From the NCBI GenBank assembly GCA_963666365.2, contig CAXXNF010000001.1:736001-800000 (forward strand): 64,000 nt of DNA, given 5' to 3'. This DNA is from Syntrophales bacterium (GTDB taxonomy: Bacteria; Desulfobacterota; Syntrophia; Syntrophales; UBA2210). A program made the position numbers and the translations under genes. The notes beneath the pieces are model-generated. The model saw only the letters and a program-made list of their open reading frames with translations, did no database searches and was not told the origin of the DNA. Below, piece after piece: positions 17,842 to 63,767 of the stretch. Each line of letters begins with the position of its first letter. Positions within the stretch are counted from its first letter, which is position 1.

Positions 17842-20800
17842 ATGAAGCTGAAAAAAATAACCCTGGTGGTTTCTCTCGTTTTTGTTTTTTTACTGCCGCT
17901 GGCAATACCTGCTTATGCTGAAGATTACACCATAGAAGTAATAAAGGAGTACTACGACGACGGTGTAACTGTATCAGTGGAATATGAGGCATATCGCACC
18001 CTAGGAGGCAGTTACATAAGGCATGGATACTACAAGACCTTCTATTCGGATAGCACGCCAGAAATCGTCGGTCGGTATTATGAAGACAAGAAGGATGGAA
18101 GCTGGACCCGCTACTTTGCAAATGGGAAAAAATCCTTTGAGGGTTCTTATAAAAATGGCCTCGAAGAGGGCACCCACACCTATTGGTGGTCCGACGGGAC
18201 CAAAGCCTCCGAAGGCGCCTATTCGGCGGGCCTTGAGATAGGAATTCATAGGGAGTGGTATTTCGATGGTCAAATTGAGCGGCAGATCGGCTACAGCAAC
18301 GGAATTTACCAAGGGACCTGGACAGAATGGTACGAAGACGGCCAGATGAAATTTCAGGGAGAATACCGAAACGGCAAGGAAGAGGGAATACACCGGTATT
18401 GGTACGACACCGGATATATCTCGTATGAAACCTCTCATAAAGAAGGGGTATCTCACGGTCTCTGGACTAAGTGGTACAATTACGGCAATCAGATGGAGTG
18501 GCAGGAATCGTTCAGCAACGGCATTGAATGCGGAACCTTCAGGATGTGGAGTTCCTACGGCGAACTGCTCTATGAGGTACCCACCGGTATCTCCTGCAGC
18601 GCGTACGAGGTAAAGGAGGATCCCTATCCCGATCCCGAGGTGGTCCCCAAGGAGCTTCGCGGATATGTGCGCGATTGGACAACCGGGACGCCTCTCAAAG
18701 GGGCATCGCTTCAGGCAGGGGATTATCAGACCACCACCGATGCGGAAGGCTTTTACCGCCTCGAGCTGGGAGAGACGGATGTCTATACCGTCACCTGCTC
18801 CAATGAAGGCTACTACAGCCGCACCTCCACCTTCGATCTTACCGGCTACGACTACAAAACGGTCAACTGCAAGCTGAAACCGGTCCTGGATGTCTCTATT
18901 CCGGCCATTACCGACGTCACCTCGAAATACGGCAACACCTTTCTCTCGGGACTCACGGTGATGAACGAATACACGGTCTCGGTGGACTGGAGGGGAGAGC
19001 CGGGCACAGTGAAGTTCGAATTGAACGGCACGGTCTACCAGTCACCGGGAACGGCCACCGGCGCGACGCGCACTTTCAACATGGGAACCGATTTTATCGC
19101 GGGGACGGGCGCCAGGACCAATATGCTCAAGATCACCGCCTACAACGCTGCCGGTGGCGAATCGATACCGGCGGTCCTTCGGCCCCTGGTAGTTCCCATA
19201 CCGGGATGGGCCACCGACCTGGGCTCCTTCGGGAAAATCAAGCCCGACAAGGGACTGCTTGTCTATACCCTGGATGCCTCCTGGCCCTCGGAACCTATCA
19301 AGATTCAGATAGACGAGGAAACGTTGGGCTCCACCTTGTGGACCGCCTGGAACCTGGTGCCCATCGTAGGGGGAAGAGTTTTCGGCATCCCGCCGACCCA
19401 GACAATTCTGGCGGTGGAAGCAAAAACGGACGGTTCCGGAAGCGTGCTGCTGGGAGGATCGACGGGTTTCAAAGCGGCAGGGCAGGAAATCACCGGAAAA
19501 ATCGGCGGCAAGGGAAATCTGGAATACAAGATCGGCGAGGGCTTTGCGTGGAAGGGAGCAAGCCTTGTCCTGGGAACCGAAGGAACGATAAAGAAGGAAG
19601 TCGGGCCTGTCACCCTTATCCCCGCTTTGGAAAAGACCGTTTCTCTTCCAGTAATAGGAAGACCCCTCAAATGGTTCAACGAGAAGGCCAAAATCGAGGG
19701 AACCGTCAAGATCGGCGGCGAGCTCGACCTTCAGGTAATCAGCGAAACAGGAAAACTGGGCTTTCATAAAACGGAGGGAACGCTTACCGACGAAGTAGGA
19801 GTGGGACTGTCATGTGGGGTTTCAAAGCTCAAAACCGAGGTGTCGGGAGGGGGCACGGCAAAGATCACCTGGCAATTCCCTGCCGACCCCGGCTATCTCA
19901 AGCAACTGGAGTCGGAAATTAAGGCAAAAATAAGTATCACCACCTGGCTTTTCACAAAAGATTTTGAAGCGTCCCAGCCCTTCAGCTACCCGGAATCGGC
20001 TTCGGCATCGTCACTTTTAAAAAGCCCCGAATCGGCAACGCTCGATCTTTCCGATTTCAAACCGGTTTCCCGGGATTTCCTGAACAGCGCCTCCTACAGC
20101 CGATTCCTGCCCGAAAGCGGCAGAGCGCCCATGAGCGTTGAAACACAGGCCCTCATCGCCGAGGGGATTCTGGTCCAGAATGTCTACCCCTATTCGGAAC
20201 CGGTGATTGCAGAACATGACGGAAAGCTGGGAATCGCCTATGTCTACTTCGACCCCGCCGACACAACGCTTCAAGCAACGGAAATCTATTTTACCTACTA
20301 CAACGGCGAGACCTACAGCGAACCACATCCAATAAAGAATGACAGCCAGGCCGAATTTGCCCCGACGCTTGCCTTCGATCAGGACGGAAAGATCGTGGCA
20401 GCATGGGAACGTGTCAGGAATGAAAACTTTACAGGGGAAACCATTTTGGAAATGGCCCAAAATCTCGAGATCGTCTTCTCAGTTTTCGACCCCTCCACTG
20501 GCCAATGGACAGAACCGCTTCCCCTTACCGACAACAGCTACCTCGACCACAGTCCCATGGTGAAAAGGGGGACCGACGGAAGCCTTCTTCTTATGTGGCA
20601 AAGCAACGAAGGGGGAGAACTGATCGGAACAAGCGACTCCCCTTCCCGCCTGCACTATGCACTCTGGAACGGCACACACTTCGGCGCGGCACAGACAATC
20701 TCACAGTCATTCCAGGATTGTATCAGTTTTTCCGCTGCCTACAGGGGACCCGATGCCATTGTCGCCTATGCGAGGGATATGGATGGAGACCTGAGCACGG

Positions 20801-22446
20801 ATCAGGATCAGGAGCTTTTTTATCTTTCCTTTGACGGTTCCCTCTGGAGTGTGCCGGTCCGGCTCACCGACGATGAGATTCCGGACGTGAATCCACGCGT
20901 TCTCTACCGAACGGACGGCATTGCCGAACTCATCTGGCTGAAGGGGACCTCGATCACAAGGCTTGACGACTGGACGTCGGGCGCATACGAAACCATTCGG
21001 GACGGGAGTGTCTCGGTCACTTTTACCGATTTTGCCGTCACTGCCGACTCCCAGGATCGCCTGCTTGTGCTCTGGCAGGACCGGGACGAAAAAGGTTCCG
21101 ATCTCTTCTTCAGTCTCTACGACCGGGAAGCCGGTCTGTGGAGCGGAGATCTGAGGCTTACCGACGACAATATAATGGAAAAGGATTTTTCCGTACTTTT
21201 TTCAGCGGATGGAAAGCTTCACGCGGTCTATAACGGTGAAAATCTCGATACATCCGCAACTGATCTCTATCATAGCATATACGAACTGTCGCAGAATCTG
21301 ACATTACCGGCAGCGGGTCTGCGGGTGGAGCCGGCAAATCCGTCGCCGGGCGAATCGGTCACCCTTGTCGTCACCGTGGAAAACAGCGGAGACATCGCCC
21401 TGGCCGGCGTGGGGGTGAATTTTTACCTCGGCGACCCCAATGCATCGGGACAGCTCATAGGCGCCGCCACCGTCACACCCACACCGCTTGCGGCGGGAAA
21501 ATCGGGCGAAGCCTCCCTTGCCTGGACGGTACCGTCCTCAGGGGAACAGATAACGGTGTATGCCATGATTGATCCCGATGGGCTGATTGCTGAGGCGGAC
21601 GAAACTGATAACCTCGTCTCTCTTTCCGTAGTCAACCCTGATCTGGTGGCCATCCAGTGCCGCCTCGAGGAACAGGCGGATGGATCGGTAAATGTGATTG
21701 CAGTGGTCGACAATGCCGGCGAAGCGGCCGCTGACGATGTGGAAATACTGTATCGGGCCAACGGCGTCGATGTGGCCCTGCGCAGTGTGCCTAGAATACT
21801 GCCGGGCGCCCGGGTCGAAGTAATGTACACAATGTGGCGCAACATAGATTTTTCGGGCCTGCAATCGTTGATGGAAATCGCTGTCGATCCGGAAAATACA
21901 ATTACGGAGGCAAATAAAGATAACAATACCGCTTTCGCCTCGATTTCACAGATATCCCTCTCCACTGCAAGTGAAGATTTTGGCGGCATTGCTGTCGGCA
22001 CTCAGTCTCGCCAGCACACTTTGGTAATTACCAACACAGGGGTCTCGGCCATAACGCTCGGCACCATTACCATTACGGGGGATAAGGCGGCATTCTTCAC
22101 CATTCTGAACGATGCCCTGTCGGGCGTTACCCTCGAGCCGGGCGAAAGCGGAACTATCGATGTTTCCTTTTCCGCGCTCGAATCGGGAGCACAGAGTGCA
22201 TCTCTCATCATCCCCTGTGAAGGAACAGAAACCGACACCATCGCTATACCTCTCGCAGCAACAGGCATTGTAAAGGGGGATGTGAACGGCGACGGGACAG
22301 TCGATATTTCGGATCTCATTGCAGTACTCGCACTACTGACTGACGGCACAGGGAACGTTGTGTACACCGCCGCCGACAGCAACGGTGACGGCAGGATCGG
22401 CAGCGCCGAGGCCATATTCATTCTTCAGGCCTTGTCGGGAAATTAA
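17842..22446 (+). CDS. Large exported protein: MORN-variant repeats, carboxypeptidase-regulatory-like domain, beta-rich/propeller-like core, CARDB x2, choice-of-anchor-D-like Ig domain and C-terminal dockerin-like motif
   Basis: Signal peptide MKLKKITLVVSLVFVFLLPLAIPAYA behind GGAG; eight ~24-aa G.W..WY.DG repeats; IDPDGLIAEADETDN and VDPENTITEANKDNN (CARDB); tail GDVNGDGTVDISDLI..ADSNGDGRIGSAEAIFILQ. Confidence 0.85.
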   Translation: MKLKKITLVVSLVFVFLLPLAIPAYAEDYTIEVIKEYYDDGVTVSVEYEAYRTLGGSYIRHGYYKTFYSDSTPEIVGRYYEDKKDGSWTRYFANGKKSFEGSYKNGLEEGTHTYWWSDGTKASEGAYSAGLEIGIHREWYFDGQIERQIGYSNGIYQGTWTEWYEDGQMKFQGEYRNGKEEGIHRYWYDTGYISYETSHKEGVSHGLWTKWYNYGNQMEWQESFSNGIECGTFRMWSSYGELLYEVPTGISCSAYEVKEDPYPDPEVVPKELRGYVRDWTTGTPLKGASLQAGDYQTTTDAEGFYRLELGETDVYTVTCSNEGYYSRTSTFDLTGYDYKTVNCKLKPVLDVSIPAITDVTSKYGNTFLSGLTVMNEYTVSVDWRGEPGTVKFELNGTVYQSPGTATGATRTFNMGTDFIAGTGARTNMLKITAYNAAGGESIPAVLRPLVVPIPGWATDLGSFGKIKPDKGLLVYTLDASWPSEPIKIQIDEETLGSTLWTAWNLVPIVGGRVFGIPPTQTILAVEAKTDGSGSVLLGGSTGFKAAGQEITGKIGGKGNLEYKIGEGFAWKGASLVLGTEGTIKKEVGPVTLIPALEKTVSLPVIGRPLKWFNEKAKIEGTVKIGGELDLQVISETGKLGFHKTEGTLTDEVGVGLSCGVSKLKTEVSGGGTAKITWQFPADPGYLKQLESEIKAKISITTWLFTKDFEASQPFSYPESASASSLLKSPESATLDLSDFKPVSRDFLNSASYSRFLPESGRAPMSVETQALIAEGILVQNVYPYSEPVIAEHDGKLGIAYVYFDPADTTLQATEIYFTYYNGETYSEPHPIKNDSQAEFAPTLAFDQDGKIVAAWERVRNENFTGETILEMAQNLEIVFSVFDPSTGQWTEPLPLTDNSYLDHSPMVKRGTDGSLLLMWQSNEGGELIGTSDSPSRLHYALWNGTHFGAAQTISQSFQDCISFSAAYRGPDAIVAYARDMDGDLSTDQDQELFYLSFDGSLWSVPVRLTDDEIPDVNPRVLYRTDGIAELIWLKGTSITRLDDWTSGAYETIRDGSVSVTFTDFAVTADSQDRLLVLWQDRDEKGSDLFFSLYDREAGLWSGDLRLTDDNIMEKDFSVLFSADGKLHAVYNGENLDTSATDLYHSIYELSQNLTLPAAGLRVEPANPSPGESVTLVVTVENSGDIALAGVGVNFYLGDPNASGQLIGAATVTPTPLAAGKSGEASLAWTVPSSGEQITVYAMIDPDGLIAEADETDNLVSLSVVNPDLVAIQCRLEEQADGSVNVIAVVDNAGEAAADDVEILYRANGVDVALRSVPRILPGARVEVMYTMWRNIDFSGLQSLMEIAVDPENTITEANKDNNTAFASISQISLSTASEDFGGIAVGTQSRQHTLVITNTGVSAITLGTITITGDKAAFFTILNDALSGVTLEPGESGTIDVSFSALESGAQSASLIIPCEGTETDTIAIPLAATGIVKGDVNGDGTVDISDLIAVLALLTDGTGNVVYTAADSNGDGRIGSAEAIFILQALSGN

Positions 22447-22469
22447 TAATGATGGACTCGCAAGAAGTC

Positions 22470-24188: not shown

Positions 24189-24418
24189 AGTCCATTCTCC
24201 TTTTCGTTCAGTATAAAGTGCTATGTTACCGGCAAACACCCTCTTGCAATCCCCGCTTTCACACAAAATAGCCGAACCTGTAAAAATTATCAAGCAAATG
24301 ATTCTGCAAAGTTACAGCGCAGGAGAAGCGACAGGCGATTTGATGTACCTGCACGAATGTGATACAAAAAGGTTGTTCTGTTACCGTAACCGTTCAGTCA
24401 CGACCCCTGGAGGCATTC

Positions 24419-27254: not shown

Positions 27255-27287
27255 AAGGCGGGAAATTTTATTCCCGCCTTTTTCTTT
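27255..27287 (+). terminator. Intrinsic terminator between convergent csp and gspE
   Basis: AAGGCGGGAA-ATTTTA-TTCCCGCCTT followed by a T-rich tract. Confidence 0.65.
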
Positions 27288-28971
27288 ATATCCGGGTCAC
27301 CCTGAAAACCTCTTCGATGGTGGTAAGTCCCTGGAGCACTTTTCCGGCGCCGTCCTGCACCAGGGTGACCATCCCCGCCTTGACCGCCTGGCGCCGTATC
27401 TGGTTTGAATCGGAAGTGGTAAGCATCAATTTTTTCAGCTCGTCGTCGCAGAGCATCATTTCGAAGATGGCGCTTCGGCCTCGAAAGCCCGTGTTCATGC
27501 AGGCGGAGCAGCCGATGCTGCGATACACCGTGGGCCTCTCCCTTTCAAAAGATCCGAGCCCTATTTTCTTCAGCGACTGTTCATCGGGCACATAGGACTC
27601 TTTGCAGACGGGGCAGAGGACCCTGACGAGCCGCTGTGCAATAACAGCGATCACCGACGATGACACGAGAAAGGGTTCAATCTCCATATCGATGATGCGG
27701 GTGATCGCGCTGGCGGCGTCATTGGTATGCAGCGTGGAAAACACAAGGTGTCCCGTCAGCGACGATTGAATGGCGATTTCCGCCGTTTCTTTATCCCGGA
27801 CTTCTCCTACAAGGATCACATCGGGGTCCTGTCGGACAATGGAACGAAGCCCCCGGGCGAAGGTGAGATCGATTTTGGGGTTCACCTGAATCTGCCCGAT
27901 GCCCTCCATCTGATATTCCACGGGATCTTCAATGGTGATAATGTTGATCTCCGGTTTGTTGATGGTCGAAAGCGCCGCATAGAGCGTGGTCGATTTTCCG
28001 CTTCCCGTCGGTCCCGTGACGAGAATGATTCCGTGGGGCGATGAAATGAGATCGGTAAAGAGCGCCAGCCTCTGATCGTCCAGTCCCAGGTCCTTCAGCT
28101 CGAAGACCATCCCCGTCTTGTCGAGCAGGCGCAAGACCACCCGCTCGCCGAAGGAGGTGGGGATGACCGATACGCGGATATCGATGGATTTGTCGCCGAT
28201 CTTTATGTCGATTCTGCCGTCCTGGGGAAGCCGCTTTTCGGCAATATTTAATTTTGCCATCACCTTCACCCGGGATACCAGCGACGACTGAATCCGTTTG
28301 GGCAGGTTGAGAATGTTGTAGAGGATGCCGTCAATGCGGTATCGGACAATTAATGAATTATGGTAGGGCTCTATATGGATGTCGCTGGCCCGCTCCTTGA
28401 CGGCCCGCGACAGCATGACATTTACCAGCTTGACAAGGGGCGCGTCGCTGGTGTCGTCGAGCAGATCCGCCGTTTCCTCGATCTCGGAGATGATGCTGTC
28501 GGGAGATTCCTCGTTGATATCCTGTATGAACTCGTCGGCCGATTCGCCACCCTGATCGTAGGCGTGATTGATGGCCGAGAGTATCGCCACCTGGGGCGCC
28601 AGCACCACCGGCGCGTCGTCCCAGTTCAACAGATGGCGCAGATCGTCGATGGGTTGAAAATCGGACGGGTCGAGGACGGCGATATATCTGCCCTCCGGAG
28701 TGTCCAGGGGAATCATTTTGTGTCGTTTCAGATACTGAATGGACACCTTTCTGGTAAAGTCGACCTTTACATCCCCCAGGGGAAGTTCATGGCGGAGAGG
28801 AATGTCGAGCCGCCGGCTCACGGCCTCGAGAAAATCGGCCTCGGAGAGGCTCTTTCGCGCAAGCAGCGCCTCGGCGACGCCGCCGCCGTGGTCGCGCCGC
28901 AGCTCCTTCGCCTCTTCAATCAGGGCATCGAGCAGTTTCCCGGTATTTTTTGAATCGGCCGCTTCCGCCAT
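27286..28971 (-). CDS. gspE: Type II secretion ATPase GspE
   Basis: ASDIHIEP, Walker A GPTGSGKSTT, TIEDPVE, RQDPDVILVGE, TGHLVFSTLHTNDA, Zn motifs CPVC and CSAC. Confidence 0.95.
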   Translation of the reverse strand: MAEAADSKNTGKLLDALIEEAKELRRDHGGGVAEALLARKSLSEADFLEAVSRRLDIPLRHELPLGDVKVDFTRKVSIQYLKRHKMIPLDTPEGRYIAVLDPSDFQPIDDLRHLLNWDDAPVVLAPQVAILSAINHAYDQGGESADEFIQDINEESPDSIISEIEETADLLDDTSDAPLVKLVNVMLSRAVKERASDIHIEPYHNSLIVRYRIDGILYNILNLPKRIQSSLVSRVKVMAKLNIAEKRLPQDGRIDIKIGDKSIDIRVSVIPTSFGERVVLRLLDKTGMVFELKDLGLDDQRLALFTDLISSPHGIILVTGPTGSGKSTTLYAALSTINKPEINIITIEDPVEYQMEGIGQIQVNPKIDLTFARGLRSIVRQDPDVILVGEVRDKETAEIAIQSSLTGHLVFSTLHTNDAASAITRIIDMEIEPFLVSSSVIAVIAQRLVRVLCPVCKESYVPDEQSLKKIGLGSFERERPTVYRSIGCSACMNTGFRGRSAIFEMMLCDDELKKLMLTTSDSNQIRRQAVKAGMVTLVQDGAGKVLQGLTTIEEVFRVTRI

Positions 28972-28976: not shown

Positions 28977-31175
28977 CTAGTTGCCCTCTCTCTTGCGCCG
29001 CAACGACTTGATCACCCCTTCTTCCAGCGTATCGATTCCCTCCTTTTTGCCTTCGTAGATCGCCTTCGCCTCGGTGGGATTTTCCACGATGTGGGGAGTC
29101 AGAAATATAAATAGATTCCGCTTCTCCTTGCTCTCCGTTTCGTACTTGAAGAGCCACCCCAGAAAGGGGATGTTCCCCAGACAGGGCACCTGGTAGGTGG
29201 TGTTGGTGATGTCGTCGCCGATGAGGCCGCCGATGACGATCGTATTGTTGTCCTTGACGGTCACCGTTGTTTTCGCGGTCCGCTTCAGCGTCGTCGGTCG
29301 ATAGGCCACGCTCTCGCCCGAAGAGACCACCTTGGTGATCTCCTGGTAGATGTTGAGCCTTACGAAGCGCTCTTCGCTGATCTGGGGCGTCAGCCGCAGC
29401 GTCACGCCCACATCCTTGTACTCGTAGGAACTGTAATCTATATTAATCGAAGAGGTTTCAGATCTGGTCTGATAGGGAATGTTTTCACCCACATAGATCT
29501 CCGCTTCCTCGTTGTCCAGCGTCATGAGCTGGGGCGTGGAGAGAATATGAACGTCCTGGTCCTTCTGATAGGCCTGAAAGACGGCGCCCAGATTGGGGAA
29601 CAGGAAATCGCCGATCTTGATCGTCTCTCCCAGCACCCCCAGCGAAAATCCCTGGGGAAAACTGACTACACCCGTCTTATCAGGTGCAGGAATGATGCTG
29701 CCGCCTCTGAACCCTCCTCCATAGACCTTGGTGCGGCCGTCACTGGAGCTGATATAATCCCCGCCGGTCCATTCCACCCCCATATCGAAGTTCTTGGTTA
29801 TGTTGACTTCCATGATAAGCGCCTCGATGTAGACCATGGGACGGGGAATATCGAGTTTTTTGATCACCTCCTCGAGGACGAGATAATCGTCACGGTCGGC
29901 GGTAATGATAAGGGAATTGGTCGCCTTGTCGGAAACGACATTCACGTTTTTCGACACCACCGGCGCCGTTCCCTTTTCGGTCGCCGCCTTTTCATCCTTT
30001 TTCGAGGGAAGGTTCATGAGTACCTTCGTCAGCTCCTCGGCATCGGCGTTCTGCAGGCGGTAGACCCGGATTTTATCCTCCCCCCGGGGAATTTCCCTGT
30101 CCAGGAGGCTCAACAGCTGCTTGATCCGTTCCGTGTCGTTCTCGCTGGCCAGGACAATGAGCGAGTTCGTTCGTTCGTCCGCCACCAGCTTGACGGGCGG
30201 TTCGATTGATCCCTTCTGATCCTTGGCCGTTTTCTGAAATATCTGACCGAGCGATTTGGTGACCTCGGAAGCCGACGCATATTTGAGCGGAAGCACCGCA
30301 ATTTGTTCCTCGATGCCCTCGATATCGAGGGCGCCGATGATAATGAGCAGCCGCTTGATATTGGAGAGCAGATCGGTCACCACCATCATTCCCGTGGGCG
30401 GGTAGGAAAGAATCACGCTTTCCCTGGACACCAGCGGGGTCAGCACCTTTTTCATCTCATTGGGGCTCGCATACTTCAGAGAGATAATCTGTGTCACCAC
30501 CCGGTCTTCCGGGGTAATCGCCTCTTCCCTGATGCGGGTCTCCACGTTTTTTTCCCTGGCGTCCTTGGTGGGGACAATCTTCGTGATGTCCCCGGCGTCG
30601 ACCACGGTATAGCCGTGCACCTCCAGCACCGATTCGAAGACCTTGTAGGCCTCGCTGACGGAGATCTTCCGGGGAGAAATAATGGTCACGTTCCCCTTCA
30701 CGGCCTTGTCCACGACAAAGTTTTTCCCCGCAAGCTCGCTCATAAATTTAATGAAGACGCGGATATCCACATCATCGAAATCGATGGTCACATACTGCTC
30801 TTCCTTCGGGGAAACCCCCGCCTTTTCATCGGCCGTTTTTTGCACGTTCTTGACATCGGCGTCGGCCGGTCCCTTCGGCGCCGGGGATGTCGCAGCCTGC
30901 GCGATTGGCGGCGCCGGAGGCGCCGCTGGCCTTGCTGCGGGCGGCCTGGCCGGCGCTGACGGCCGCGGCGGCGGCGCCATGGGGCGCACAGTCCTGCCGG
31001 GAGATGGGGCTGGTTGTGCCGCCGGCGCGACAGGCGCGTTTTTCTGCGTCGTGGTCACAACGGCGTCATCTCCCGTCACCCGCGCCGCTTCTCCCGTTCC
31101 CGCACACACAAGCAGGGCGATAGACAGCACTACGCCATAGAACAACAAATTTTTTCTCGTCACGTTCCTCACCAA
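28977..31175 (-). CDS. gspD: Type II secretion secretin GspD with a Pro/Ala-rich N-terminal extension
   Basis: VTIDFDDVDIR..NFVVDKAVKGNVTIISP (N0), ADERTNSLIV, LDIPRPMVYIEALIMEV, LSTPQLMTLDNEEA, VPCLGNIPFLGWLF. Confidence 0.95.
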   Translation of the reverse strand: MVRNVTRKNLLFYGVVLSIALLVCAGTGEAARVTGDDAVVTTTQKNAPVAPAAQPAPSPGRTVRPMAPPPRPSAPARPPAARPAAPPAPPIAQAATSPAPKGPADADVKNVQKTADEKAGVSPKEEQYVTIDFDDVDIRVFIKFMSELAGKNFVVDKAVKGNVTIISPRKISVSEAYKVFESVLEVHGYTVVDAGDITKIVPTKDAREKNVETRIREEAITPEDRVVTQIISLKYASPNEMKKVLTPLVSRESVILSYPPTGMMVVTDLLSNIKRLLIIIGALDIEGIEEQIAVLPLKYASASEVTKSLGQIFQKTAKDQKGSIEPPVKLVADERTNSLIVLASENDTERIKQLLSLLDREIPRGEDKIRVYRLQNADAEELTKVLMNLPSKKDEKAATEKGTAPVVSKNVNVVSDKATNSLIITADRDDYLVLEEVIKKLDIPRPMVYIEALIMEVNITKNFDMGVEWTGGDYISSSDGRTKVYGGGFRGGSIIPAPDKTGVVSFPQGFSLGVLGETIKIGDFLFPNLGAVFQAYQKDQDVHILSTPQLMTLDNEEAEIYVGENIPYQTRSETSSINIDYSSYEYKDVGVTLRLTPQISEERFVRLNIYQEITKVVSSGESVAYRPTTLKRTAKTTVTVKDNNTIVIGGLIGDDITNTTYQVPCLGNIPFLGWLFKYETESKEKRNLFIFLTPHIVENPTEAKAIYEGKKEGIDTLEEGVIKSLRRKREGN

Positions 31176-31192: not shown

Positions 31193-31882
31193 TTAATGCG
31201 CTGATCTTAACTCCATAAGCGCGCGAAATTGATCTGTCCCGCGCAATCCCTCCAAGTCTCTATCATTTTTTGCCCAGTTTTTCACATCATTATTCAAACG
31301 CAGCGCTTTTTCAAGATATTCCAGCCCTTTTACCCTGTTCCCTTCGCGGGAGTAGAGACAGGCCAGATTATAGTAGGGATCAACATAGTCCATTTTATGG
31401 GCGATCGCCCGTTCAAAATGCGTCCGCGCACGGTCCATGTCCTTCTTTGCAAGAAATATCACCCCCAGGTTGTTGAGCGCAGCCGCGTGAGAGGGCGCTT
31501 CTTTCAGGATGTGCCCGTAGATGTCTTCGGCCTTATCGAGGAGTCCTTCTTTTTGATACCGCAGGGCCTCGCCATATAAGGCGCCGAGGGCAGGGACTTT
31601 GTCCGCCTTCCCTTTCTGTGCCTCCCCTCCGGGTCCCGTGGAAAGGGTGTGCGTCTTCAACGCCCTCCTGTCATCCTCTTTCGCACCACCGGGCATTTCT
31701 TCTTTCAGGAGCCATGCCCCGGCAAAAATAATTAGAATCAGCGCCGAGACCAGCAGTGCCGGCCGCAGCAGACGGCGGCGGACGGCTGCACGCTCCGGCG
31801 CCCCTATCACGCCGCCGTAGTGGGCATAAAGACTGTCTTTTTCCTGCTGTGCCTTTTTTAATGCATCGTGAATATGGCTCAC
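31193..31882 (-). CDS. ExeB/GspB-like membrane protein with a TPR domain
   Basis: N-terminus SHIHDALKKAQQEK resembles GspB starts; one TM segment; TPRs ALNNLGVIF and YYNLACLY; GTG start overlaps the exeA stop. Confidence 0.75.
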   Translation of the reverse strand: MSHIHDALKKAQQEKDSLYAHYGGVIGAPERAAVRRRLLRPALLVSALILIIFAGAWLLKEEMPGGAKEDDRRALKTHTLSTGPGGEAQKGKADKVPALGALYGEALRYQKEGLLDKAEDIYGHILKEAPSHAAALNNLGVIFLAKKDMDRARTHFERAIAHKMDYVDPYYNLACLYSREGNRVKGLEYLEKALRLNNDVKNWAKNDRDLEGLRGTDQFRALMELRSAH

Positions 31883-34531: not shown

Positions 34532-34534
34532 GGT

Positions 34535-34682: not shown

Positions 34683-34798
34683 ATGGTGTCGATCCCCGCA
34701 CTTTTTTCCTCCCGCGTAGAGGTCAAAAAGATCGTTACTTCTTCTCTTTCCCTTTGCGCCTCTGCGTCTCTGCGCGAAACTGCCTTTTATATCCCCGA

Positions 34799-37606: not shown

Positions 37607-37736
37607 ACATGAATCAGTTGCTTAGAAACGCCGCCATGCCGACCGGGTCGGCATTGTAATGGCACGCAGAGTCTCTGGTACAACAGATATGAAGACACAG
37701 ATGTCAGGACACATTGCAATCAGGAAAACCGGTCCG

Positions 37737-42250: not shown

Positions 42251-42273
42251 TCCGCTCTTTTCTCTCTCTGTTG

Positions 42274-47466: not shown

Positions 47467-47700
47467 TAATCACAGCGCAGTATAAGAAAGTCCCCGGTGA
47501 GTGTCAAAATTAAAATAATGAAATCTGAAAGAAACAGTCTTCTTGGCAGCAAGGCAGTGCATCAAGTGTACTGCCGTTCAAAAACCATAAAAACGAGAGG
47601 GTTGATTTTGGCAATCATACCTGTTTAAATATTTTTACGCATGCCGGCGCCGCTTTCTTCGAAGCACACAGCCGACATTCAAAAAAAGGGGGGGCTAACC

Positions 47701-50700
47701 ATGATGGTACAGGGGGGATGTAAAAAAATTTTTAAAGTAATACAGGTCCTTTTCCTTACGGCAGTGTGGATGGCTGTAACCTTCGGATCGATGAGCCTTT
47801 CGGCGGCAGCGGAAAGGACGGCAGAGACACATCCTCAGGCGCGCTGTGCTGCAACGATCCATTCATCTCAATTGGTCCCGCTTTCTTCCGCTGCGCGGGA
47901 CCCCCTCGAGAATTGCATTGAAACGTTTTATATCGAAGACAACACACTGACTGCGGACGGAACGGAAGCCTCCTATTCAAAATTATGGCTCAAGTTCATC
48001 TGCCCCGGCGACCTTTGGTTCGACATACTCTATGAAGGGACGGTGTGTAACGACGTCGATAAGGTTGGAGGGTACATACAGGAGCCGGGGACCTCTATCA
48101 CCGAGGATACGCTTTGTTATGTGTATTACAAGGCCCCTGCGCTTGCACCGACCGAAGAGCTTTCCGGCACCATGGAGCTGATGCTTCGCGTGACCCATGA
48201 GCAAAGCGGACAGAGCAAAACAATCCCGGTCTACATCGAAATCGGCGAGTATATACCGCCTGTGACTTCCAACATCAGAATTTCCAGCGACGCCGCCTAC
48301 GTGGAATACGGAACCTCCTTCACCGCGAACATTGCGGTCTATAAAGACGGGGCGGTGGACAGAGAGACCCATAGCCTCCACATCACCAGCGAGCCGGCGG
48401 AATTCGGTTTTGAAGGAAACATTGAGGTAGTAGGCGGACAAACGTCCCTTGATTTTCAGGCGGGAAACAAAACCCTGGTGGATCTGATCGACGAGGAGGT
48501 TTTGAGTGATCTTCTCACCTATGACCGAATCACGATCACGGCGGTGGATAATGCCACCGGCGACAGTGCCACGTACAGTATTCCGCTGGGAAAACCCCTC
48601 AGCGTGTTCCTTGATCCCTATTATGACTCCGACATACACGCCATACTACCGGCGGATTCACATTTTCCCGTCAGAATTCTGGCCATTGTGGGGGGAAGCA
48701 GGGACGATCCCCGATGGGACCAGGGAGAAAACACAAAACAGAACCGGGAAGTTGCGATTGAACTCGTCAATGAAAGCGATTCCACCATGCCGTCATCGGG
48801 GACTCTGAACCAGGGAACACATGTCCCTGCAAAGACATACCACACCGATGAGTACGGGATAACATCAGACGCGGTCTATTATTATTACCATCTCTATGGA
48901 TACCATCTGGGCTGTCCCACCGGCACGATTCAGTGTCCGCAGTATGACAGAATCGTCGTCGAGGACAGTCTCACCGCTGTAGAAAAAACGGCCTCCGTTG
49001 CCACCGGCCTGCTTCTTGAGGTGAAGGACATTGCACACGCGGAACAGCCCAGCGGGGTGCTGCAAACCCCTGTGGCGATAAAGACCCGACTTTCTTCGCT
49101 CTTTTATCCCGATCTCGATCTTGAAGCGTTCAGTTCCCGTTTTGTCAGTCCTGAGGGAGGCGGTTATGAATATGGCATCAAGATGGAGATCAACTGGATA
49201 AACCAGCCGGAAAAGCTGGGATGGTGGGGGTATATTAAGAGTAAATTATCCGGGTCCAGTTCGACTGCCACCGCATATAACGGCGCCTGCGCCATTGACG
49301 AGAACGGGACGCTTATCGCCCGGGAGCAACCGGCAATTGAAGTGGGGGGACTGAATCTGCCCGGCATCACGATTAAAGAAACGGGCGCCTATTTTTTCAC
49401 GGTAAACTTCACACCGGTCGACCTTATAAGCGGAACCGAGTTTGAAGGCCCGGCGGAATTCGTGGGAAATAAAAGATATTGTTTCGGACTTGCCGTAAGC
49501 GATGCAAACGCTCCTTACATACAATTCATCGCCTGTGCACTGAATCCGGACAGCCACAAGGAAAAGGTTTTCCTGGAAATTGCCAAAAGGCTGGCCGCTC
49601 CCGGTGTAGTTTTCAAAAGACTGTTGCCCCTTGCCGATATCGCCTGCAAGCTTCAAAGCGGCCAGATGCGCGATGCCATGCTTGCCGCCGGGGCCTTTGT
49701 CGCCGGTGAAACGCTGAATATTATCGACAAAAGTTACGACATGTCTCTGTCCGAACGTGAGAAGGAGCTTCTGGAGCTTGCCCTGAAAACCAACCAGATT
49801 GCCGATTACCAGAGCTTTCTCGAAGCATTGCTGCCGGATGTGCGTGTTCCCTATTCAGCGGCGGATGACAATCTTGATGGTATATCCGAAGCGGAATTTC
49901 AGGACATGTTGAGTGCTTTTGTCGAAGGAATCCTGGGCGAAAATATCGCGGGAAAGCGGATCATCTCGGTCTTCGGCGCCAACAGCGCCGATGTTTTCGA
50001 TAATGCTGGGATTCACGCCCTTTCTGTAGACGACATAGGCGACGATCTCTCCAACCTGGGCGACATGATGACGGTTACAGCGGGGAATGTTGCCGTGTTC
50101 ATCGTTGACAATGACAAACATTACACACTGACCATAGAAAACGGAACCGATGCGGATATTCGCATCGACGATTCGGGCACACCCGATTATACCCTCTACT
50201 CTTTCGGCGCCGGTTCTTTCGCCACTGCCTCCCTGGAAGTTACGCCCGGCAACGACAATCCGGTGCGCGTCGACTATCAGGGGGACGGCACTGTCGATAA
50301 AGACCTGTGGCCCCTGGGGCATGTGGTGGAAGAACCGCGATTTACGGCCATCACCATATCGCCGCCCTCCGCCTTTATATTCCCCGGGGAGACGCAGCAA
50401 TTTACGGCGACGGCACGGGACCAATTCGGCAATGAAATGTCGGGCATTACGTTCGAGTGGTCAAGCAGCAACCCGGAGGCGGGCACGGTCGATATGACCG
50501 GATTATTCACGGCGATTACGGAAGGAGAAACTGTCGTGACGGCGACAAGCGGAGCCTGTGCCCGGGACGCGAAGATAAGCATACTCACCGCCCGGGAATG
50601 GGTGCGGCTCCTCGGCTCGCCGGGTTCCGAAGAAGGGCGGGATGTGGCCGTTGATTCGAACGGCAATGTGTACGTCGTCGGTACCACATGGGGAAACCTG

Positions 50701-51900
50701 GATGGCAACGTGAATAAGGGAGAATGTGATCTGTGTATCGTCAAGTACGATCCACAAGGGAACAGGCAGTGGACGAAGGTGCTCGGCACTTCGGGGCAAG
50801 ACTGCGGTGAAGGGATTGCCGTGGACGGGCAGAACAACCTGTACGTGACCGGGTGGACCTCGGGAGATCTGGACGGCAATGTCAATCCCGGCTATTGTTC
50901 TATTTTCTTGGCGAAATACGATACTGAGGGCACTGCACAATGGAGCAGGATCGTCGGTAATCAGGCCGGTAATTTTGCTCAGAATCTCGCCGTGGATGGA
51001 CAGGGCAATGTGTATGTGACCGGGTGGAGTTATGGAATCCTCGACGGCATTACTGCCGACAATGATGATATTTTCATTATGAAATTCGATGCATCCGGCA
51101 CGAGGCAGTGGACAAGGCTGCTCGGGTCTTCGGGTTATGATTTCGGTTTGGCCGTTGCCGTGGACGCAACCGGCAACAGCTATCTTACCGGATGTGTACA
51201 GGGGGCCATGGATGGGAACCCTTACGCAGGAGCATATGATGTCTTCGTGGCGAAGTACGATACTGAAGGCAACAAGCAGTGGACGAAGACCCTCGGAACC
51301 GCCGACGAAGACCGGGGGGAAGGCATTGCAGTGGATGCGGCGGGAAACAGTTACATAACCGGCTATACCCGCGGCGATCTGGATGGAAATACCTGTGCCG
51401 GCAGTGCAGATATTTTTGTGGCGAAGTACGACGGGGCGGGCAACAAGCTGTGGACGAAGCTCTTCGGCAGTACGGGCTATGATGCAGGCAATGATATAGC
51501 TGAGGACGGCGCGGGCAATGTATACGTCACCGGAATAACCTACACCGATTACACTGAATATATCTTTCTGACAAAGTACGATTCCTCAGGGGCGGTGCAG
51601 TGGGCGAGGCGTCTCGGTTCCCGGGGCTACGAGTACGGCACCGGAATCGCCTGTGTTTCCGGTAACAATTTTTATGTGACCGGCGCAACCGATGGGGACC
51701 TGGGCGGGAATGTCAATGGGGGAAGTTATGATGTTTTTGTCTGGCACCTTGATTACTCCAAGGACGGTATTGCCCTTGAAACGGTCATCCGGATACTGCA
51801 TGCGCTGACCGGTACGAACCCTGGCTCAATTCCCCTTGCCGCCGACGCAAGTGGAGAGGGAACAGTAGGCCTGGAAGACGCCATATATTTCCTCAAATAG
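47701..51900 (+). CDS. Large exported protein: unknown N-terminal region, Big_2 Ig domain, 7-bladed SBBP beta-propeller and a (possibly truncated) dockerin-like tail
   Basis: Signal-like N-terminus; GETQQFTATARDQFGN..WSSSNPEAGTVD..GLFTA; seven W...LG....D....AVD..GN.YVTG repeats; tail ADASGEGTVGLEDAIYFLK. Confidence 0.87.
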   Translation: MMVQGGCKKIFKVIQVLFLTAVWMAVTFGSMSLSAAAERTAETHPQARCAATIHSSQLVPLSSAARDPLENCIETFYIEDNTLTADGTEASYSKLWLKFICPGDLWFDILYEGTVCNDVDKVGGYIQEPGTSITEDTLCYVYYKAPALAPTEELSGTMELMLRVTHEQSGQSKTIPVYIEIGEYIPPVTSNIRISSDAAYVEYGTSFTANIAVYKDGAVDRETHSLHITSEPAEFGFEGNIEVVGGQTSLDFQAGNKTLVDLIDEEVLSDLLTYDRITITAVDNATGDSATYSIPLGKPLSVFLDPYYDSDIHAILPADSHFPVRILAIVGGSRDDPRWDQGENTKQNREVAIELVNESDSTMPSSGTLNQGTHVPAKTYHTDEYGITSDAVYYYYHLYGYHLGCPTGTIQCPQYDRIVVEDSLTAVEKTASVATGLLLEVKDIAHAEQPSGVLQTPVAIKTRLSSLFYPDLDLEAFSSRFVSPEGGGYEYGIKMEINWINQPEKLGWWGYIKSKLSGSSSTATAYNGACAIDENGTLIAREQPAIEVGGLNLPGITIKETGAYFFTVNFTPVDLISGTEFEGPAEFVGNKRYCFGLAVSDANAPYIQFIACALNPDSHKEKVFLEIAKRLAAPGVVFKRLLPLADIACKLQSGQMRDAMLAAGAFVAGETLNIIDKSYDMSLSEREKELLELALKTNQIADYQSFLEALLPDVRVPYSAADDNLDGISEAEFQDMLSAFVEGILGENIAGKRIISVFGANSADVFDNAGIHALSVDDIGDDLSNLGDMMTVTAGNVAVFIVDNDKHYTLTIENGTDADIRIDDSGTPDYTLYSFGAGSFATASLEVTPGNDNPVRVDYQGDGTVDKDLWPLGHVVEEPRFTAITISPPSAFIFPGETQQFTATARDQFGNEMSGITFEWSSSNPEAGTVDMTGLFTAITEGETVVTATSGACARDAKISILTAREWVRLLGSPGSEEGRDVAVDSNGNVYVVGTTWGNLDGNVNKGECDLCIVKYDPQGNRQWTKVLGTSGQDCGEGIAVDGQNNLYVTGWTSGDLDGNVNPGYCSIFLAKYDTEGTAQWSRIVGNQAGNFAQNLAVDGQGNVYVTGWSYGILDGITADNDDIFIMKFDASGTRQWTRLLGSSGYDFGLAVAVDATGNSYLTGCVQGAMDGNPYAGAYDVFVAKYDTEGNKQWTKTLGTADEDRGEGIAVDAAGNSYITGYTRGDLDGNTCAGSADIFVAKYDGAGNKLWTKLFGSTGYDAGNDIAEDGAGNVYVTGITYTDYTEYIFLTKYDSSGAVQWARRLGSRGYEYGTGIACVSGNNFYVTGATDGDLGGNVNGGSYDVFVWHLDYSKDGIALETVIRILHALTGTNPGSIPLAADASGEGTVGLEDAIYFLK

Positions 51901-60457: not shown

Positions 60458-60615
60458 GGTGCCTCCTCGCCACTCCATTTTTATTTCTTGTGCCGCCTAT
60501 AAATATAAATGTCAAGAAAATAGGCCCGTCACCGGTTCTTGAATGTTGAACTTTGTCCGCGTTATATGATAGCGTTATGCACCTTAATAATAATTGTTTG
60601 CAGGCGAGTCTTCCC

Positions 60616-61845
60616 ATGGCCGTATACGAGTACCGGGCGCTCAGCAGTTCGGGCAAAACACTGAAGGGCATTATTGATGCCGAGAGTATGTTCGCGGCGC
60701 GAAGAAAGCTCAGGGAACGGGATGCCTATCCCGTGGAACTGAAGGAAACGTCGGCCCGCGAGGAGCAAGCCGTCCAGACAAAGCGGACCCTGGGAAGCTA
60801 CTTCAAGCAGGTGAGCCAGAGCGAGGTGACCACCATGACGAGGCAGCTTGCCACACTTCTCGGCGCCGGCCTTCCCCTCGTCTCGTCGCTGACCGCCCTG
60901 GTCACGCAGACATCGAACCAGCACCTGAAAAAGACCCTGGCGCAGATCAAGGAAGATGTAAACGAGGGAAACAGCCTTGCCCAGAGTTTATCGCACTACG
61001 GGCGGATCTTTCCCCCCTTTTATGTCAATATGGTCCGTGCCGGCGAGGCTTCGGGCGCGCTCGACATTGTTCTGGAGCGGCTGGCTGACTTTAACGAAAA
61101 GCAGCGGGCGCTGAGGGGGAAAATCCGGGCGGCCCTCACCTATCCCCTCTTCATGTTCTTTATCGGCGGCATGGTCCTCTTTGTGCTCATGGGGTTTATC
61201 GTCCCCAAGATTACCGGCATATTTGCAGAAATGCACCAGACGCTTCCGGCCATCACCCTTTTTCTCATTGCCGTAAGCGGACTGATCAAGTCTTTTTGGC
61301 TGGTGTGTATCATTTTTATGATTGCGCTCTTCGTGACGCTTCGCTATCTGTTTACCAAAACGAAGAGGGGGCAGTACCTGTGGGATCGAATCAAACTTTC
61401 CGTTCCATTCATCGGGTCGCTGATGCACAAGCTGGCTGTCGCCCGTTTCAGCAGGACTCTGGGCACCCTCCTGGGAAGCGGGGTGCCCCTCCTTACCGCC
61501 CTCTCCATTGTGAAAAACGTCGTCGATAACCGGCTCATCGCCGACGCCATCGGAGATGCGGCAAAGGACGTGGAGGAAGGGGGAAGCCTTTCGGCGACTC
61601 TTTCACGGAGCAATCTCTTCCCCCCTCTGGTGATACAAATGATCGCCGTCGGTGAGCAAAGCGGGGCGCTGGAAGCCATGCTGGCGAAAATAGCCGATGG
61701 ATACGAGACGGAGGCCGAATCGAGCATCATGCAGATCATGTCACTGCTTGAACCTATGATGATCCTCATAATGGGGTTTTTTGCAGGATTCGTGGTGATA
61801 TCCATACTGCTTCCCATTTTTGAGATGAATCAACTAGTGCGATGA
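60616..61845 (+). CDS. gspF: Type II secretion inner-membrane protein GspF
   Basis: MAVYEYRAL, TRQLATLLGAGLPL, MVRAGEASG, ALTYP, GEQSG, LLEP. Confidence 0.95.
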   Translation: MAVYEYRALSSSGKTLKGIIDAESMFAARRKLRERDAYPVELKETSAREEQAVQTKRTLGSYFKQVSQSEVTTMTRQLATLLGAGLPLVSSLTALVTQTSNQHLKKTLAQIKEDVNEGNSLAQSLSHYGRIFPPFYVNMVRAGEASGALDIVLERLADFNEKQRALRGKIRAALTYPLFMFFIGGMVLFVLMGFIVPKITGIFAEMHQTLPAITLFLIAVSGLIKSFWLVCIIFMIALFVTLRYLFTKTKRGQYLWDRIKLSVPFIGSLMHKLAVARFSRTLGTLLGSGVPLLTALSIVKNVVDNRLIADAIGDAAKDVEEGGSLSATLSRSNLFPPLVIQMIAVGEQSGALEAMLAKIADGYETEAESSIMQIMSLLEPMMILIMGFFAGFVVISILLPIFEMNQLVR

Positions 61846-61864
61846 ATTATATCAGGAGAACAAA

Positions 61865-62305
61865 ATGAAAAGAAACTACGGCGCAGAGGGTTTCACGCTC
61901 ATCGAGCTGATGGTGGTCATTGTGATTATCGGCATTCTTGCCGGTCTTATTGTACCCCGTATCATGGGAAGGCCCGACGAGGCACGACAGGCAAAGGCAC
62001 GCATGCAGATCGAAAGCCTCGAAACGGCGCTGAAACTGTATCGCCTGGACAATGGAAGTTATCCTACAACGGAACAGGGGCTGCAGGCGCTGGTCGAGGC
62101 GCCTGAGGTGGGAGAGCTTGCAAAAAAGTGGCGCGAGGGCGGCTATCTGGAAAAGGGGAAGGTGCCCAGGGATCCATGGGATAATGAATTTGTCTATCTC
62201 TGCCCGGGCGCCAACGGTGATTTCGATCTCCTCTCCTACGGCGCCGACGGCGAGCAGGGGGGCGAAGGGAAAAACAAGGACATCACCAACTGGGACAGTG
62301 AATAA
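61865..62305 (+). CDS. gspG: Major pseudopilin GspG
   Basis: GFTLIELMVVIVIIGILA, YRLDNGSYPTTEQGLQAL, DPWDNEFVY, SYGADG, DITNW. Confidence 0.96.
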   Translation: MKRNYGAEGFTLIELMVVIVIIGILAGLIVPRIMGRPDEARQAKARMQIESLETALKLYRLDNGSYPTTEQGLQALVEAPEVGELAKKWREGGYLEKGKVPRDPWDNEFVYLCPGANGDFDLLSYGADGEQGGEGKNKDITNWDSE

Positions 62306-62798
62306 CAGAGGCTTCACCCTTATCGAGATCAGTGTCGTCGTGGCCCTGATAGGGTTGATGTTGTCGATCACCGTTCCCACGGTGCGCGATGCCCTGCTGA
62401 CGGACGGGCTGAAAAAAACGGCCAACTATATCATCAACAGCGCCGGAGAGCTTCGGAACAACGCCCTTCGCGAACAGGTGGATTATATTTTACATATCGA
62501 CATAGGCAGCGGGTGCTTCTGGACCAGCAGCGCTGACATGACACCGGAGGCCAAAGCGGAATCCAGGGAAAAGGCCTACTGTGTGCCCCCGGGCGTGAAA
62601 ATCGCCGATTTCTACCGATTCGGTCGGGAAAAGGTCTTCGAGGGAGAGGTGACGATAGGATTTTTCAAGGGTGGGTACCTGGAACCGGCGGTCCTGCATC
62701 TTTCCGAAGGCGTCCGTGCATTCACCGTGGTCTTTGAACCCTTCCTACACAAAGTGACACTCTATGACAGCTACAGAGATATTGAAGCGAAAAACTGA
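62298..62798 (+). CDS. gspH: Minor pseudopilin, GspH-like
   Basis: GTG start overlapping the gspG end; RGFTLIEISVVVALIGLM prepilin motif. Confidence 0.75.
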   Translation: MNNRGFTLIEISVVVALIGLMLSITVPTVRDALLTDGLKKTANYIINSAGELRNNALREQVDYILHIDIGSGCFWTSSADMTPEAKAESREKAYCVPPGVKIADFYRFGREKVFEGEVTIGFFKGGYLEPAVLHLSEGVRAFTVVFEPFLHKVTLYDSYRDIEAKN

Positions 62799-62810
62799 AA
62801 AAAGGAGCAC

Positions 62811-63767
62811 TTGATGAGCGCAAAAGATTTCCCCGCAAAGAGATGGTGGTTCGCCCTTTCCTTTTTTGTCGTCATGTCTGTACTTCCGGCGGTGCGGCAC
62901 GGGGTCGAGGCGGCGGGAAAACCCTGCGGGGAACCGGAACGCACCGATGCATCAGTGGTTGCCCGTTTCGACGGCAGGGTCGTCACGACGAAAGATTTCG
63001 AAACCCGCGTGTCCCACATTGCGTCCCGTCCTGACAAATCTATGAGCGAGCTCGATCAGAAGCGGGGCGCCTTGGAAACGCTGCTGCGCACCTCCCTCTT
63101 CGCCTTGGAGGCAAAGGAGAAAAAGTTCGATCAGGACGAGGCTGTGCGAAAAATGATCCAAGAGGCCGAGGAGGCCATTCTGGCCAACGAGTTCGTAAAA
63201 CGCGTGGCTGCGGAAGACAGGAAGGTGACCGATGAAGAGATTGGAGCGTACTATCGGACCCATGAACAAGAATTTACCCGGTCACCCATGGTGCGTGCCC
63301 GCCACATAATGATAGGCGTCGATCGCTCGGCGCCCCCGGAGAAAATCAGCGCGGCCCGGTCAAAGGCGCAGACCGCCAGGCAGGAACTTTCGGCAGGAGC
63401 GGACTTCATTGATGTGGCAAGAAAATATTCCGACGACGGCGCTACGAAACACCGGGGCGGCGACCTGGGCTATATTACGGAAGGGAGAATGGGCCAGGAG
63501 TTTTTTAATGCCGCCTACGCACTCACACCGGGGGAGTTGAGTGAACCCGTACAAACGGAACAGGGTTTTCACATCATCAAGCTGGAAACGCGAAGAGAGG
63601 GACATCTGCTGCCCCTTGCCTCCGTAAGCGGGCGCATCCGTTCACAGCTTGCCGCCGACAAGGAAAAAAAGACGACCGACAGGCTATATGAAACGTTGAA
63701 AGAAAAGTATCACGTTGATATTCTTGAAGATAACCTCAAACGGGCAAAACTGAAAAAAAGCGGCTGA
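62811..63767 (+). CDS. Exported parvulin/PpiC-type peptidyl-prolyl isomerase (SurA/PrsA-like foldase)
   Basis: Signal peptide; VRARHIMI, ARKYSDD, GGDLG, SEPVQTEQGFHIIKL. Confidence 0.92.
   Translation: MMSAKDFPAKRWWFALSFFVVMSVLPAVRHGVEAAGKPCGEPERTDASVVARFDGRVVTTKDFETRVSHIASRPDKSMSELDQKRGALETLLRTSLFALEAKEKKFDQDEAVRKMIQEAEEAILANEFVKRVAAEDRKVTDEEIGAYYRTHEQEFTRSPMVRARHIMIGVDRSAPPEKISAARSKAQTARQELSAGADFIDVARKYSDDGATKHRGGDLGYITEGRMGQEFFNAAYALTPGELSEPVQTEQGFHIIKLETRREGHLLPLASVSGRIRSQLAADKEKKTTDRLYETLKEKYHVDILEDNLKRAKLKKSG

Follow-up and report, generated by a model that had tools for sequence, protein, structure and literature searches.

A dockerin label on exported proteins and cohesins linked to type II secretion genes in a Syntrophales bacterium: a probable export-and-display system

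In the genome of a Syntrophales bacterium (4.0 Mb, two contigs), genes of a type II secretion system (T2SS) are interleaved with genes for large exported proteins whose bodies are unrelated and which all end in the same short tail. What reads this tail, and what does it do for the proteins that carry it? We approached this question from a window of 64,000 nucleotides, G000:C1:736001-800000 (G numbers denote genomes and L numbers loci; G000 is the genome itself and C1 its contig). A dockerin is a duplicated calcium-binding loop-helix module that binds a cohesin, and the T2SS is a known route for Sec-exported folded proteins that have no barrel of their own. Our analysis suggests that the tail is probably a dockerin label read by T2SS-linked cohesins, in a system for export and display. 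The tagged proteins of the window and their tags are as follows.

17749..22446, plus strand: exported MORN/CarboxypepD/CARDB/Ig protein with C-terminal dockerin tag; likely start 17842
22261..22443, plus strand: dockerin tag of the MORN/CARDB protein; Dockerin_1 30.6 bits, cut-off 22.9
34799..37186, minus strand: exported C10 cysteine protease (Peptidase_C10) with C-terminal dockerin tag
34802..34990, minus strand: dockerin tag of the C10 protease; profile match
37659..40136, plus strand: exported S8 protease (Peptidase_S8 and PA) with N-terminal STN/secretin-N0-like domain and C-terminal dockerin tag
39927..40118, plus strand: dockerin tag of the S8 protease; profile match
47641..51900, plus strand: exported SBBP beta-propeller/Big_2 protein with C-terminal dockerin tag
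51730..51897, plus strand: dockerin tag of the SBBP protein; profile match

A preliminary description of this DNA had reported duplicated loop-helix tails on four open reading frames (ORFs) near these places. The profile matches confirm it, and the bodies are as unrelated as it had claimed (CARDB/MORN_2/CarboxypepD; Peptidase_C10; Peptidase_S8 and PA; SBBP and Big_2). Its naming of the tail as dockerin-like holds by fold and by sequence matches, although only one of the four window tails alone passes the Pfam Dockerin_1 cut-off. An iterated profile seeded with the four tails was searched against 38,126 six-frame ORFs at E<=1e-3. It matched 49 ORFs, the window's four included, while the best reversed ORF reached only E 2.7, so these matches are not due to chance. 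A signal-peptide-like N-terminal stretch, recognized by a hydrophobicity heuristic, is present in 43 of the 49 tagged ORFs compared to 365 of 1188 background long ORFs, and in 41 of the 49 the tag lies at most 10 residues from the C-terminal end.

The Dockerin_1 cut-off is passed by 13 of the 49 tagged ORFs. The closest PDB sequence match of the tag is a dockerin (2y3n_B, E 8.5e-10), and calmodulin-type EF-hands likewise match the profile. The predicted structure of the tag (pLDDT 84) has two tandem loop-helix repeats with a short linker, the helices spanning residues 18-28 and 55-65; a Foldseek search with this model returned dockerin chains in all of its top ten rows (TM 0.61-0.72, none at E<=0.001). 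In dockerins, calcium is bound by loop positions 1, 3, 5, 9 and 12. Among 32 aligned tags, loop 1 carries Asp at position 1 and Asp/Glu at position 12 in 31 each, and loop 2 carries Asp at position 1 in 27, Glu/Asp at position 12 in all 32 and Gly at position 9 in 25. The first loop is absent from 11 of the 49 copies. Judged by its sequence and modelled fold, the tail is a type-I-like dockerin (PF00404), a putative address label carried across the genome by mostly exported proteins. Searches of NCBIfam with the tag gave weak matches only, the best (E 0.0007) to a cellobiosidase model. The tag lies outside the GC-type dockerin anchor family NF041540, which matches only 4 of the 32 tags (best E 0.026). 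NF041540 and NF041770 (CFI-box-CTERM) share with the tag that they are dockerin-like or sorting tails at the C-terminus of unrelated proteins; NF041770 fits the candidate anchor protein discussed below, not the tag. A second, more classical dockerin type with low scores against the tag profile occurs at L055:3540-5609, L062:196-1020, L067:11021-12631 and in L044, in some cases fused to a cohesin; it is possibly a second specificity class inside the anchor cluster.

The preliminary description placed the tagged genes among or beside the T2SS (gsp) blocks, which is true for its four. The gsp region holds 7 of the 49 tagged ORFs compared to 0.93 expected, but the other 42 lie elsewhere, and confinement of the tag to this region is ruled out. 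The linkage of the tag to the T2SS was borne out at the level of gene order and co-occurrence. The description had also proposed a protease-centred analogue of the cellulosome. Of the 49 tagged bodies, 44 were scanned for domains and carry mostly Ig-like repeats, beta-helices, propellers, Lcl, PKD, Fn3 and YD repeats. A protease catalytic domain was present in three of the 44 (C10, S8 and C1), and no glycoside hydrolase catalytic domain was found in them, part of the scan being run at E<=1e-8. By domain content, the tagged cargo is thus mostly adhesin-like, not proteases. Pfam detects only two cohesins in the genome, one domain each, and so no multi-cohesin scaffoldin in it; together with the low share of proteases, this rules out a protease-centred cellulosome.

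The two cohesins, which we call CohN and CohS, lie 9 and 27 kb past the right end of the window. The reported lack of a cohesin therefore holds inside the window and not beyond it. The locus runs on past the window end with the following genes.

G000:C1:800483-805042, minus strand: Ig-stalk protein of 1519 aa with a C-terminal CFI motif, membrane helix and basic tail
G000:C1:805093-806631, minus strand: exported 512-aa protein, no known family
G000:C1:806714-809722, minus strand: CohN
G000:C1:809802-810620, minus strand: STN-domain protein
G000:C1:810713-811114 (L003:12713-13114), minus strand: small degenerate-dockerin gene
G000:C1:811423-816402 and 816868-825405, minus strand: two large tagged proteins
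G000:C1:825954-826640, minus strand: Crp/Fnr regulator
G000:C1:826658-827161, minus strand: CohS
G000:C1:827455-827853, plus strand: gspI
G000:C1:828241-828933, plus strand: gspJ

CohS consists of a signal peptide and one cohesin domain, with no anchor. It is encoded by a single-copy gene divergent from the adjoining gspI, and nearly all of its relatives are built alike, with a low-complexity tail at most. One protein of 465 aa, P0131, carries a C-terminal CohS-like domain. The CohS model shows a type I cohesin fold (pLDDT 95.7); PF00963 is passed over its cut-off and the best Foldseek match is 6kgc_A (E 1e-11, TM 0.87). NCBIfam returned weak matches only for CohS (best E 0.07), and the ESM Atlas only unnamed or cohesin clusters. 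In cohesins, strands 8-3-6-5 form the dockerin-binding face. The near-invariant residues of CohS fall on strands 3, 5, 6 and 8, that is on this face, with strands assigned by the DSSP string and the known cohesin topology instead of coordinates. A complex of CohS and the tag predicted with ESMFold2 scored 0.48 compared to 0.02 for the best control, with a partner pLDDT >=70 and runs that agree in 100% of contacts. Of 157 solved complexes, 116 reach the mark used here, as do 2 of 215 mismatches; passes at <=0.60 comprise only 18 of the 157 solved complexes, yet both mismatches. The model hints that CohS may bind the tag.

CohN is the N-terminal cohesin domain of a 1002-aa Ig-repeat stalk protein. 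With NF041763, whose cut-off is 15.9 bits, the CFI-tailed protein of the CohN cluster reaches 15.3, and the proteins at the same position in G014 and G031 pass NF041770. In L082, L083 and L087 CohN itself ends in membrane-anchor-like tails, with a CFI motif over the cut-off only in L082. In L143 (G544:C3:28001-48000) a CohN/CFI cluster stands beside a second, divergent gspG-gspD-gspE set.

We then compared the distribution of tag and cohesins across 151 genomes of the order, our own included, and 400 others of the phylum. In the order, 16 genomes have tag and CohS, 6 the tag only, 1 CohS only and 128 neither. The tag is thus present in 22 genomes and CohS in 17, always once; the CohS match of G015 is a short piece only. 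All 17 CohS genomes have a GspD match, compared to a base rate of 100/151. In G534, the one genome with CohS only, no tag was detected at E<=0.01 and the cohS gene is broken by an in-frame stop and a frameshift. CohN occurs in 12 of the 151 genomes, single-copy, all of them tag-positive. Genera g9, g10, g17, g19, g27 and g303 each include members with and without the tag-CohS pair, so this distribution does not go back to one event. Among the 400 other genomes, 27 have a match to the tag profile, and the five with at least nine matches are exactly the five with a strong CohS match; none of the remaining 395 has one. A match in G059 (E 2e-8, internal stop) was not taken as CohS. These five carry 10-41 tags, and all have GspD and GspK matches (GspD in two pieces in G369; base rate of GspK 228/401). 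All 13 genomes with at least seven tags have CohS and GspD. The pattern resembles that of a C-terminal sorting-signal system of the T9SS-CTD or PEP-CTERM style, one module, terminal in 41/49, on unrelated exported proteins, with a single co-occurring dedicated factor, the single-copy CohS, accompanied by tags in 16/17. A GspD tree of 23 rows, computed by a quick method after 3 duplicates had been omitted and with CohS-positive loci over-represented, shows 4 label changes, which fits repeated loss and proves nothing on direction.

Among the records with CohS are ones named Desulfonema magnum and Desulfosediminicola flagellatus, and hosts in culture may therefore exist. Others are titled Gammaproteobacteria and Roizmanbacteria (L084, L124), which may be binning errors, since L084 seems identical to L086 over most of the compared part.

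The position of cohS points to the T2SS as well. It directly follows gspE in G014 (1-base gap), G031 (overlapping stop/start) and G037; the gsp operons of the tagless G017, G023 and G007 do not contain it. It lies about 2 kb from gspD in G448, G459, G475, G486, G493, G502 and G524, and adjoins gspI in G350. Among 71 CohS loci from GTDB, some of which are the same DNA as genomes counted above, a T2SS gene is found within the examined flank in 23 and at most 600 bases away in 18, and the adjoining gene varies (gspE, gspD, gspF, gspG, gspH). This strict count left out 5 of 28 CohS loci first taken as gsp-linked, which have only a weak PilB/GspE-type ATPase match. A tagged gene is present in 20 of the 71 loci. 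In L109, L110, L115, L120 and L126, cohS adjoins a PilB/GspE-like ATPase and cyclic-nucleotide-binding proteins, not a canonical gsp operon.

The gsp genes of the window are as follows; with gspI and gspJ 27 kb past its end, the T2SS locus extends over about 65 kb.

27286..28971, minus strand: gspE, T2SS ATPase; TIGR02533 684 bits, over cut-off; start set by the G001 orthologue
28977..31175, minus strand: gspD secretin; TIGR02517 530 bits, over cut-off
31193..31888, minus strand: TPR protein in the place of gspB, also kept in related gsp operons
31879..32842, minus strand: gspA/ExeA-like AAA ATPase, two ORFs; a one-base insertion near 32524 splits the frame
32858..33704, minus strand: gspC with PDZ; a one-base insertion near 32968 ends the frame early
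33704..34531, minus strand: gspN; TIGR04411 over cut-off
40155..43260, minus strand: gspK, gspL and gspM; family matches
60553..62798, plus strand: gspF, gspG and gspH; family matches for F and G
62811..63767, plus strand: periplasmic PpiC-type foldase, which recurs in these gsp loci

Together these form the T2SS core set gspC-M with a T2SS-type secretin and ATPase. GspD, E, K, L, N and I score above their NCBIfam cut-offs and GspC just below (149.5 compared to 150); GspF, G and M were assigned by Pfam, and GspH and GspJ by prepilin motif and position. The blocks N, C, A, D, E, then K, L, M and F, G, H had been recognized in the preliminary description, whereas its "B" is the TPR protein, which has no match to the GspB family, and gspA is split in two ORFs. 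The one-base insertions in gspA and gspC are absent from two related strains from other studies; for the one near 32968, one read run agrees with the assembly at a depth of only 2. The C10 protease gene occupies the equivalent place before gspN in G001.

The window holds other features too. Between the C10 gene and gspN, at 34531-34790, lies a multicopy repeat of about 140 bases (47 blastn matches of at least 40 bases in the genome; missing at this place in two related strains), which probably accounts for the 93-aa ORF there. An L,D-transpeptidase gene at 24359-26060 (plus strand) is broken by a one-base insertion near 25754 that two related strains do not have, and is followed by a DUF882 peptidase. 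At 46225-47355 (minus strand), a family-3 solute-binding domain is fused to a cytidine-deaminase-like domain.

The tag also occurs on small partner genes. In our genome, the products of five small genes combine a signal peptide with one or two YD repeats and the tag, and each of these genes directly follows an untagged YD-rich gene for 1550-1880 aa. Seven more such adaptors were found in G014, G483, G502 (two), G547, G459 and G031, among 20 loci chosen mostly for short tagged ORFs, again after an untagged YD-bearing gene; the arrangement therefore holds in 12 of 12 cases. The partner in G459 has 770 aa and only two YD motif matches. We infer that the YD sheet of the large protein is completed by the adaptor, which thereby supplies the tag in trans; this would mean that the tag is needed for export or placement of the YD proteins. 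Window segment 4174-15137 (minus strand) encodes a transglutaminase/DUF6531/RHS protein of 2263 aa with a signal peptide, followed downstream by a small gene and preceded upstream by a LamG/Fn3 protein of 1360 aa; this segment has no tag and no adaptor, is of lower GC and stands beside transposases.

Two further genes may belong to the system. The N-terminal STN/secretin-N0-like domain of the S8 protease is shared with the STN-domain protein at G000:C1:809802-810620, and the N-terminal part of the protease, with one protein as query, was found in 7 of 10 CohS-positive genomes and in 0 of 5 without intact CohS. The S8 protease is probably a core member of the system, not random cargo; that it matures cargo is speculation on our part. 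A further 585-aa protein with this STN-like domain is encoded at G000:C1:299509-301266 (minus strand). The small gene at G000:C1:810713-811114, upstream of the CohN cluster, encodes a signal peptide and a degenerate dockerin, which a spacer of about 50 residues separates from a run of prolines at the C-terminus. This run is mostly three prolines, often followed by Arg/Lys, and is kept in nearly all full-length relatives seen. The layout resembles that of monitoring or arrest peptides, a likeness by analogy. The ESM Atlas gave a CzcI-like lead for this gene at 0.86, under the bar.

In the mechanism that we propose, Sec would carry tagged proteins across the inner membrane, and they would fold in the periplasm with calcium bound to the tail, as signal peptides and loop residues suggest. 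The tail would then be bound by CohS, the product of an accessory gene of the T2SS locus, as the predicted complex hints. CohS could present or escort the cargo to the T2SS, so that one recognition surface serves unrelated proteins. Outside the cell, CohN would take over the tail, its stalk being held by a CFI-box-type anchor or, in some relatives, fused to one. Untagged YD/Rhs-type proteins would obtain the tail in trans from their small YD-plus-dockerin partner. Our tentative preference, with a chance a little under even, goes to CohS as a periplasmic receptor or escort for T2SS cargo that acts before or during secretion, since it has no anchor, is encoded once per genome, is strongly conserved and coupled to gspE, and disappears together with the tags. 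It is rather unlikely that the fullest version holds in all its parts: the dockerin as a portable T2SS signal, CohS as its dedicated periplasmic receptor, the STN-domain S8 protease maturing or releasing cargo, CohN on a CFI-box anchor for display, YD/Rhs proteins licensed in trans by a clip-on YD-dockerin adaptor, and the small dockerin-proline-run gene perhaps sensing the system and tuning the anchor operon.

Several observations weigh against such a receptor. The T2SS can do without tag and CohS, since most genomes with a T2SS possess neither, and 6 of the 22 tag-positive genomes of the order are without CohS. G465 has four tags and an intact gsp operon, and G483, G172 and G332 have 2-6 tags, all without a CohS match; G025 has one tag and no Pfam cohesin match. 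No GspD match was found in G033, G533 and G547, which have 1-5 tags; the sole tag of G547 is a YD adaptor near-identical to one in G502, and G033, also without GspK and CohS, keeps CohN and four tags. In G504 a divergent cohesin and a tagged gene directly follow gspE. The genomes are related and many are fragmented, so that these counts are not independent, and Fisher tests on the co-occurrence give values that are too strong. No T2SS gene lies within the examined flank of 48 of the 71 CohS loci, including 17 of the 28 in which both flanks extend for 5 kb or more; G076 and G396 carry CohS and the gsp operon on different contigs. Among 17 longer CohS relatives (7,999 candidates scored) there was no CohS-Gsp fusion, which is weak evidence. 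ESMFold2 passes as low as that of the CohS-tag complex mislead more often than not, except where binding was already likely on other grounds, and the score may reflect memory of solved cohesin-dockerin pairs. Three of the eight YD-rich genes here have no adjoining adaptor, including the one at window 4174-10965. Cohesin-dockerin binding is usually very tight, a poor fit to a recycled shuttle.

Display alone, which we consider quite possible though doubtful, and a passive shield both explain much of the same data as a receptor. If the tag served display only, all parts would leave through the T2SS by ordinary conformational signals, the tag would dock cargo on CohN/CFI-box anchors after secretion, CohS would be secreted as a cap or adaptor, and the genes would lie close together through shared regulation (crp) and joint inheritance of a single island. 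Dockerins are known to serve docking, every CohN genome is tag-positive, CohN has anchor-like tails in three loci, many cohS loci adjoin tagged genes or the CohN cluster and not gsp genes, and G033 retains CohN and tags without CohS, GspD and GspK. This account must however accommodate that CohN was not found in 10 of the 22 tag-positive genomes and CohS in 6, that CohS occupies several different places within gsp operons, and that a single anchorless cohesin by itself cannot tether anything.

It is less probable still that CohS merely covers the hydrophobic face of the dockerin against premature capture by CohN or aggregation, with no contact to the secretion machine. Such a shield could well be an anchorless protein with only a signal peptide and an invariant binding face, with a gene broken where tags are gone and unlinked from gsp in several genomes outside the order; but up to 49 cargoes would need abundant CohS, whereas the tight coupling to gspE would suggest machine-level amounts, and CohS is present in genomes where CohN was not found. 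Least probable, and in our view a long shot, is that the tail is just some calcium-binding or self-pairing module of a generic kind, which domain shuffling has spread, with cohesins and gsp genes hitchhiking on the same island. The Gly at position 9 of loop 2, the missing first loops, the match of calmodulin-type EF-hands to the profile and some few-tag genomes without CohS would suit it. It is opposed by the co-occurrence of tag and CohS (16/6/1/128) across several genera with both states, by the five of five tag-rich genomes outside the order that have CohS while none of the other 395 has a strong match, by the broken cohS in a tagless genome and by the YD adaptors.

How does the receptor reading compare with known systems? 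The clostridial cellulosome, with its type I cohesin-dockerin pairs (PDB 6kgc, 4dh2, 1ohz; 2y3n for the dockerin), has the same folds, the duplicated calcium loop-helix and many cargoes with one C-terminal dockerin. In contrast, the host here is Gram-negative, the multi-cohesin scaffoldin and, in the scanned bodies, glycoside hydrolase cargo are missing, and the main cohesin is anchorless and tied to gsp genes. Type IX secretion uses a C-terminal domain, the PorV shuttle and the PorU protease. It likewise has one folded C-terminal tag on many unrelated cargoes, one dedicated receptor and a tagged protease among the core genes; this is an analogy of working only, as machine and folds differ, and we claim no homology.

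For the T2SS, cargo recruitment is described in the portions of PMC7949064 consulted as elusive, with composite conformational signals over distant loops. The complete Gsp set and PDZ-bearing GspC are alike, whereas here a single portable module and a candidate receptor are proposed. In syntrophic sulfate reducers of the same phylum, cohesin, dockerin, CARDB and S8 proteins were listed among possible adhesins, and expression of some was high (Murali et al. 2023, PMC10553843). The main text of that paper never mentions "type II secretion", and the parts covered hold no genome-wide tag, stand-alone cohesin or YD adaptor; supplement files 13-17, outside these parts, may bear on novelty. The "planctosome" of freshwater Planctomycetes, which are diderm, is a hypothetical non-cellulolytic cohesin-dockerin complex with peptidases (PMC6461901). 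It differs in its lamin-tail protein anchor and its protease-centred make-up and, as far as the consulted parts of that source go, in that no link to a secretion system is proposed. Within the literature covered, which excludes most subscription papers, there was no account of a stand-alone cohesin linked to gsp genes, of a dockerin label used across a genome in Desulfobacterota or of YD-dockerin adaptors, and nothing on CFI-box-CTERM or on stand-alone or autonomous periplasmic cohesins with dockerins.

We therefore appear to deal with a real, conserved variant of cohesin-dockerin use that is tied to the T2SS and apparently not described before. A tag of about 60 residues together with a named candidate receptor makes T2SS cargo selection directly testable. 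If the tag is indeed a secretion signal, it would be a transplantable handle, readable from sequence, for secreting folded proteins. If it serves display only, this would still be an apparently undescribed surface-protein system in syntrophic and sulfate-reducing bacteria, whose secretomes could be read from sequence.

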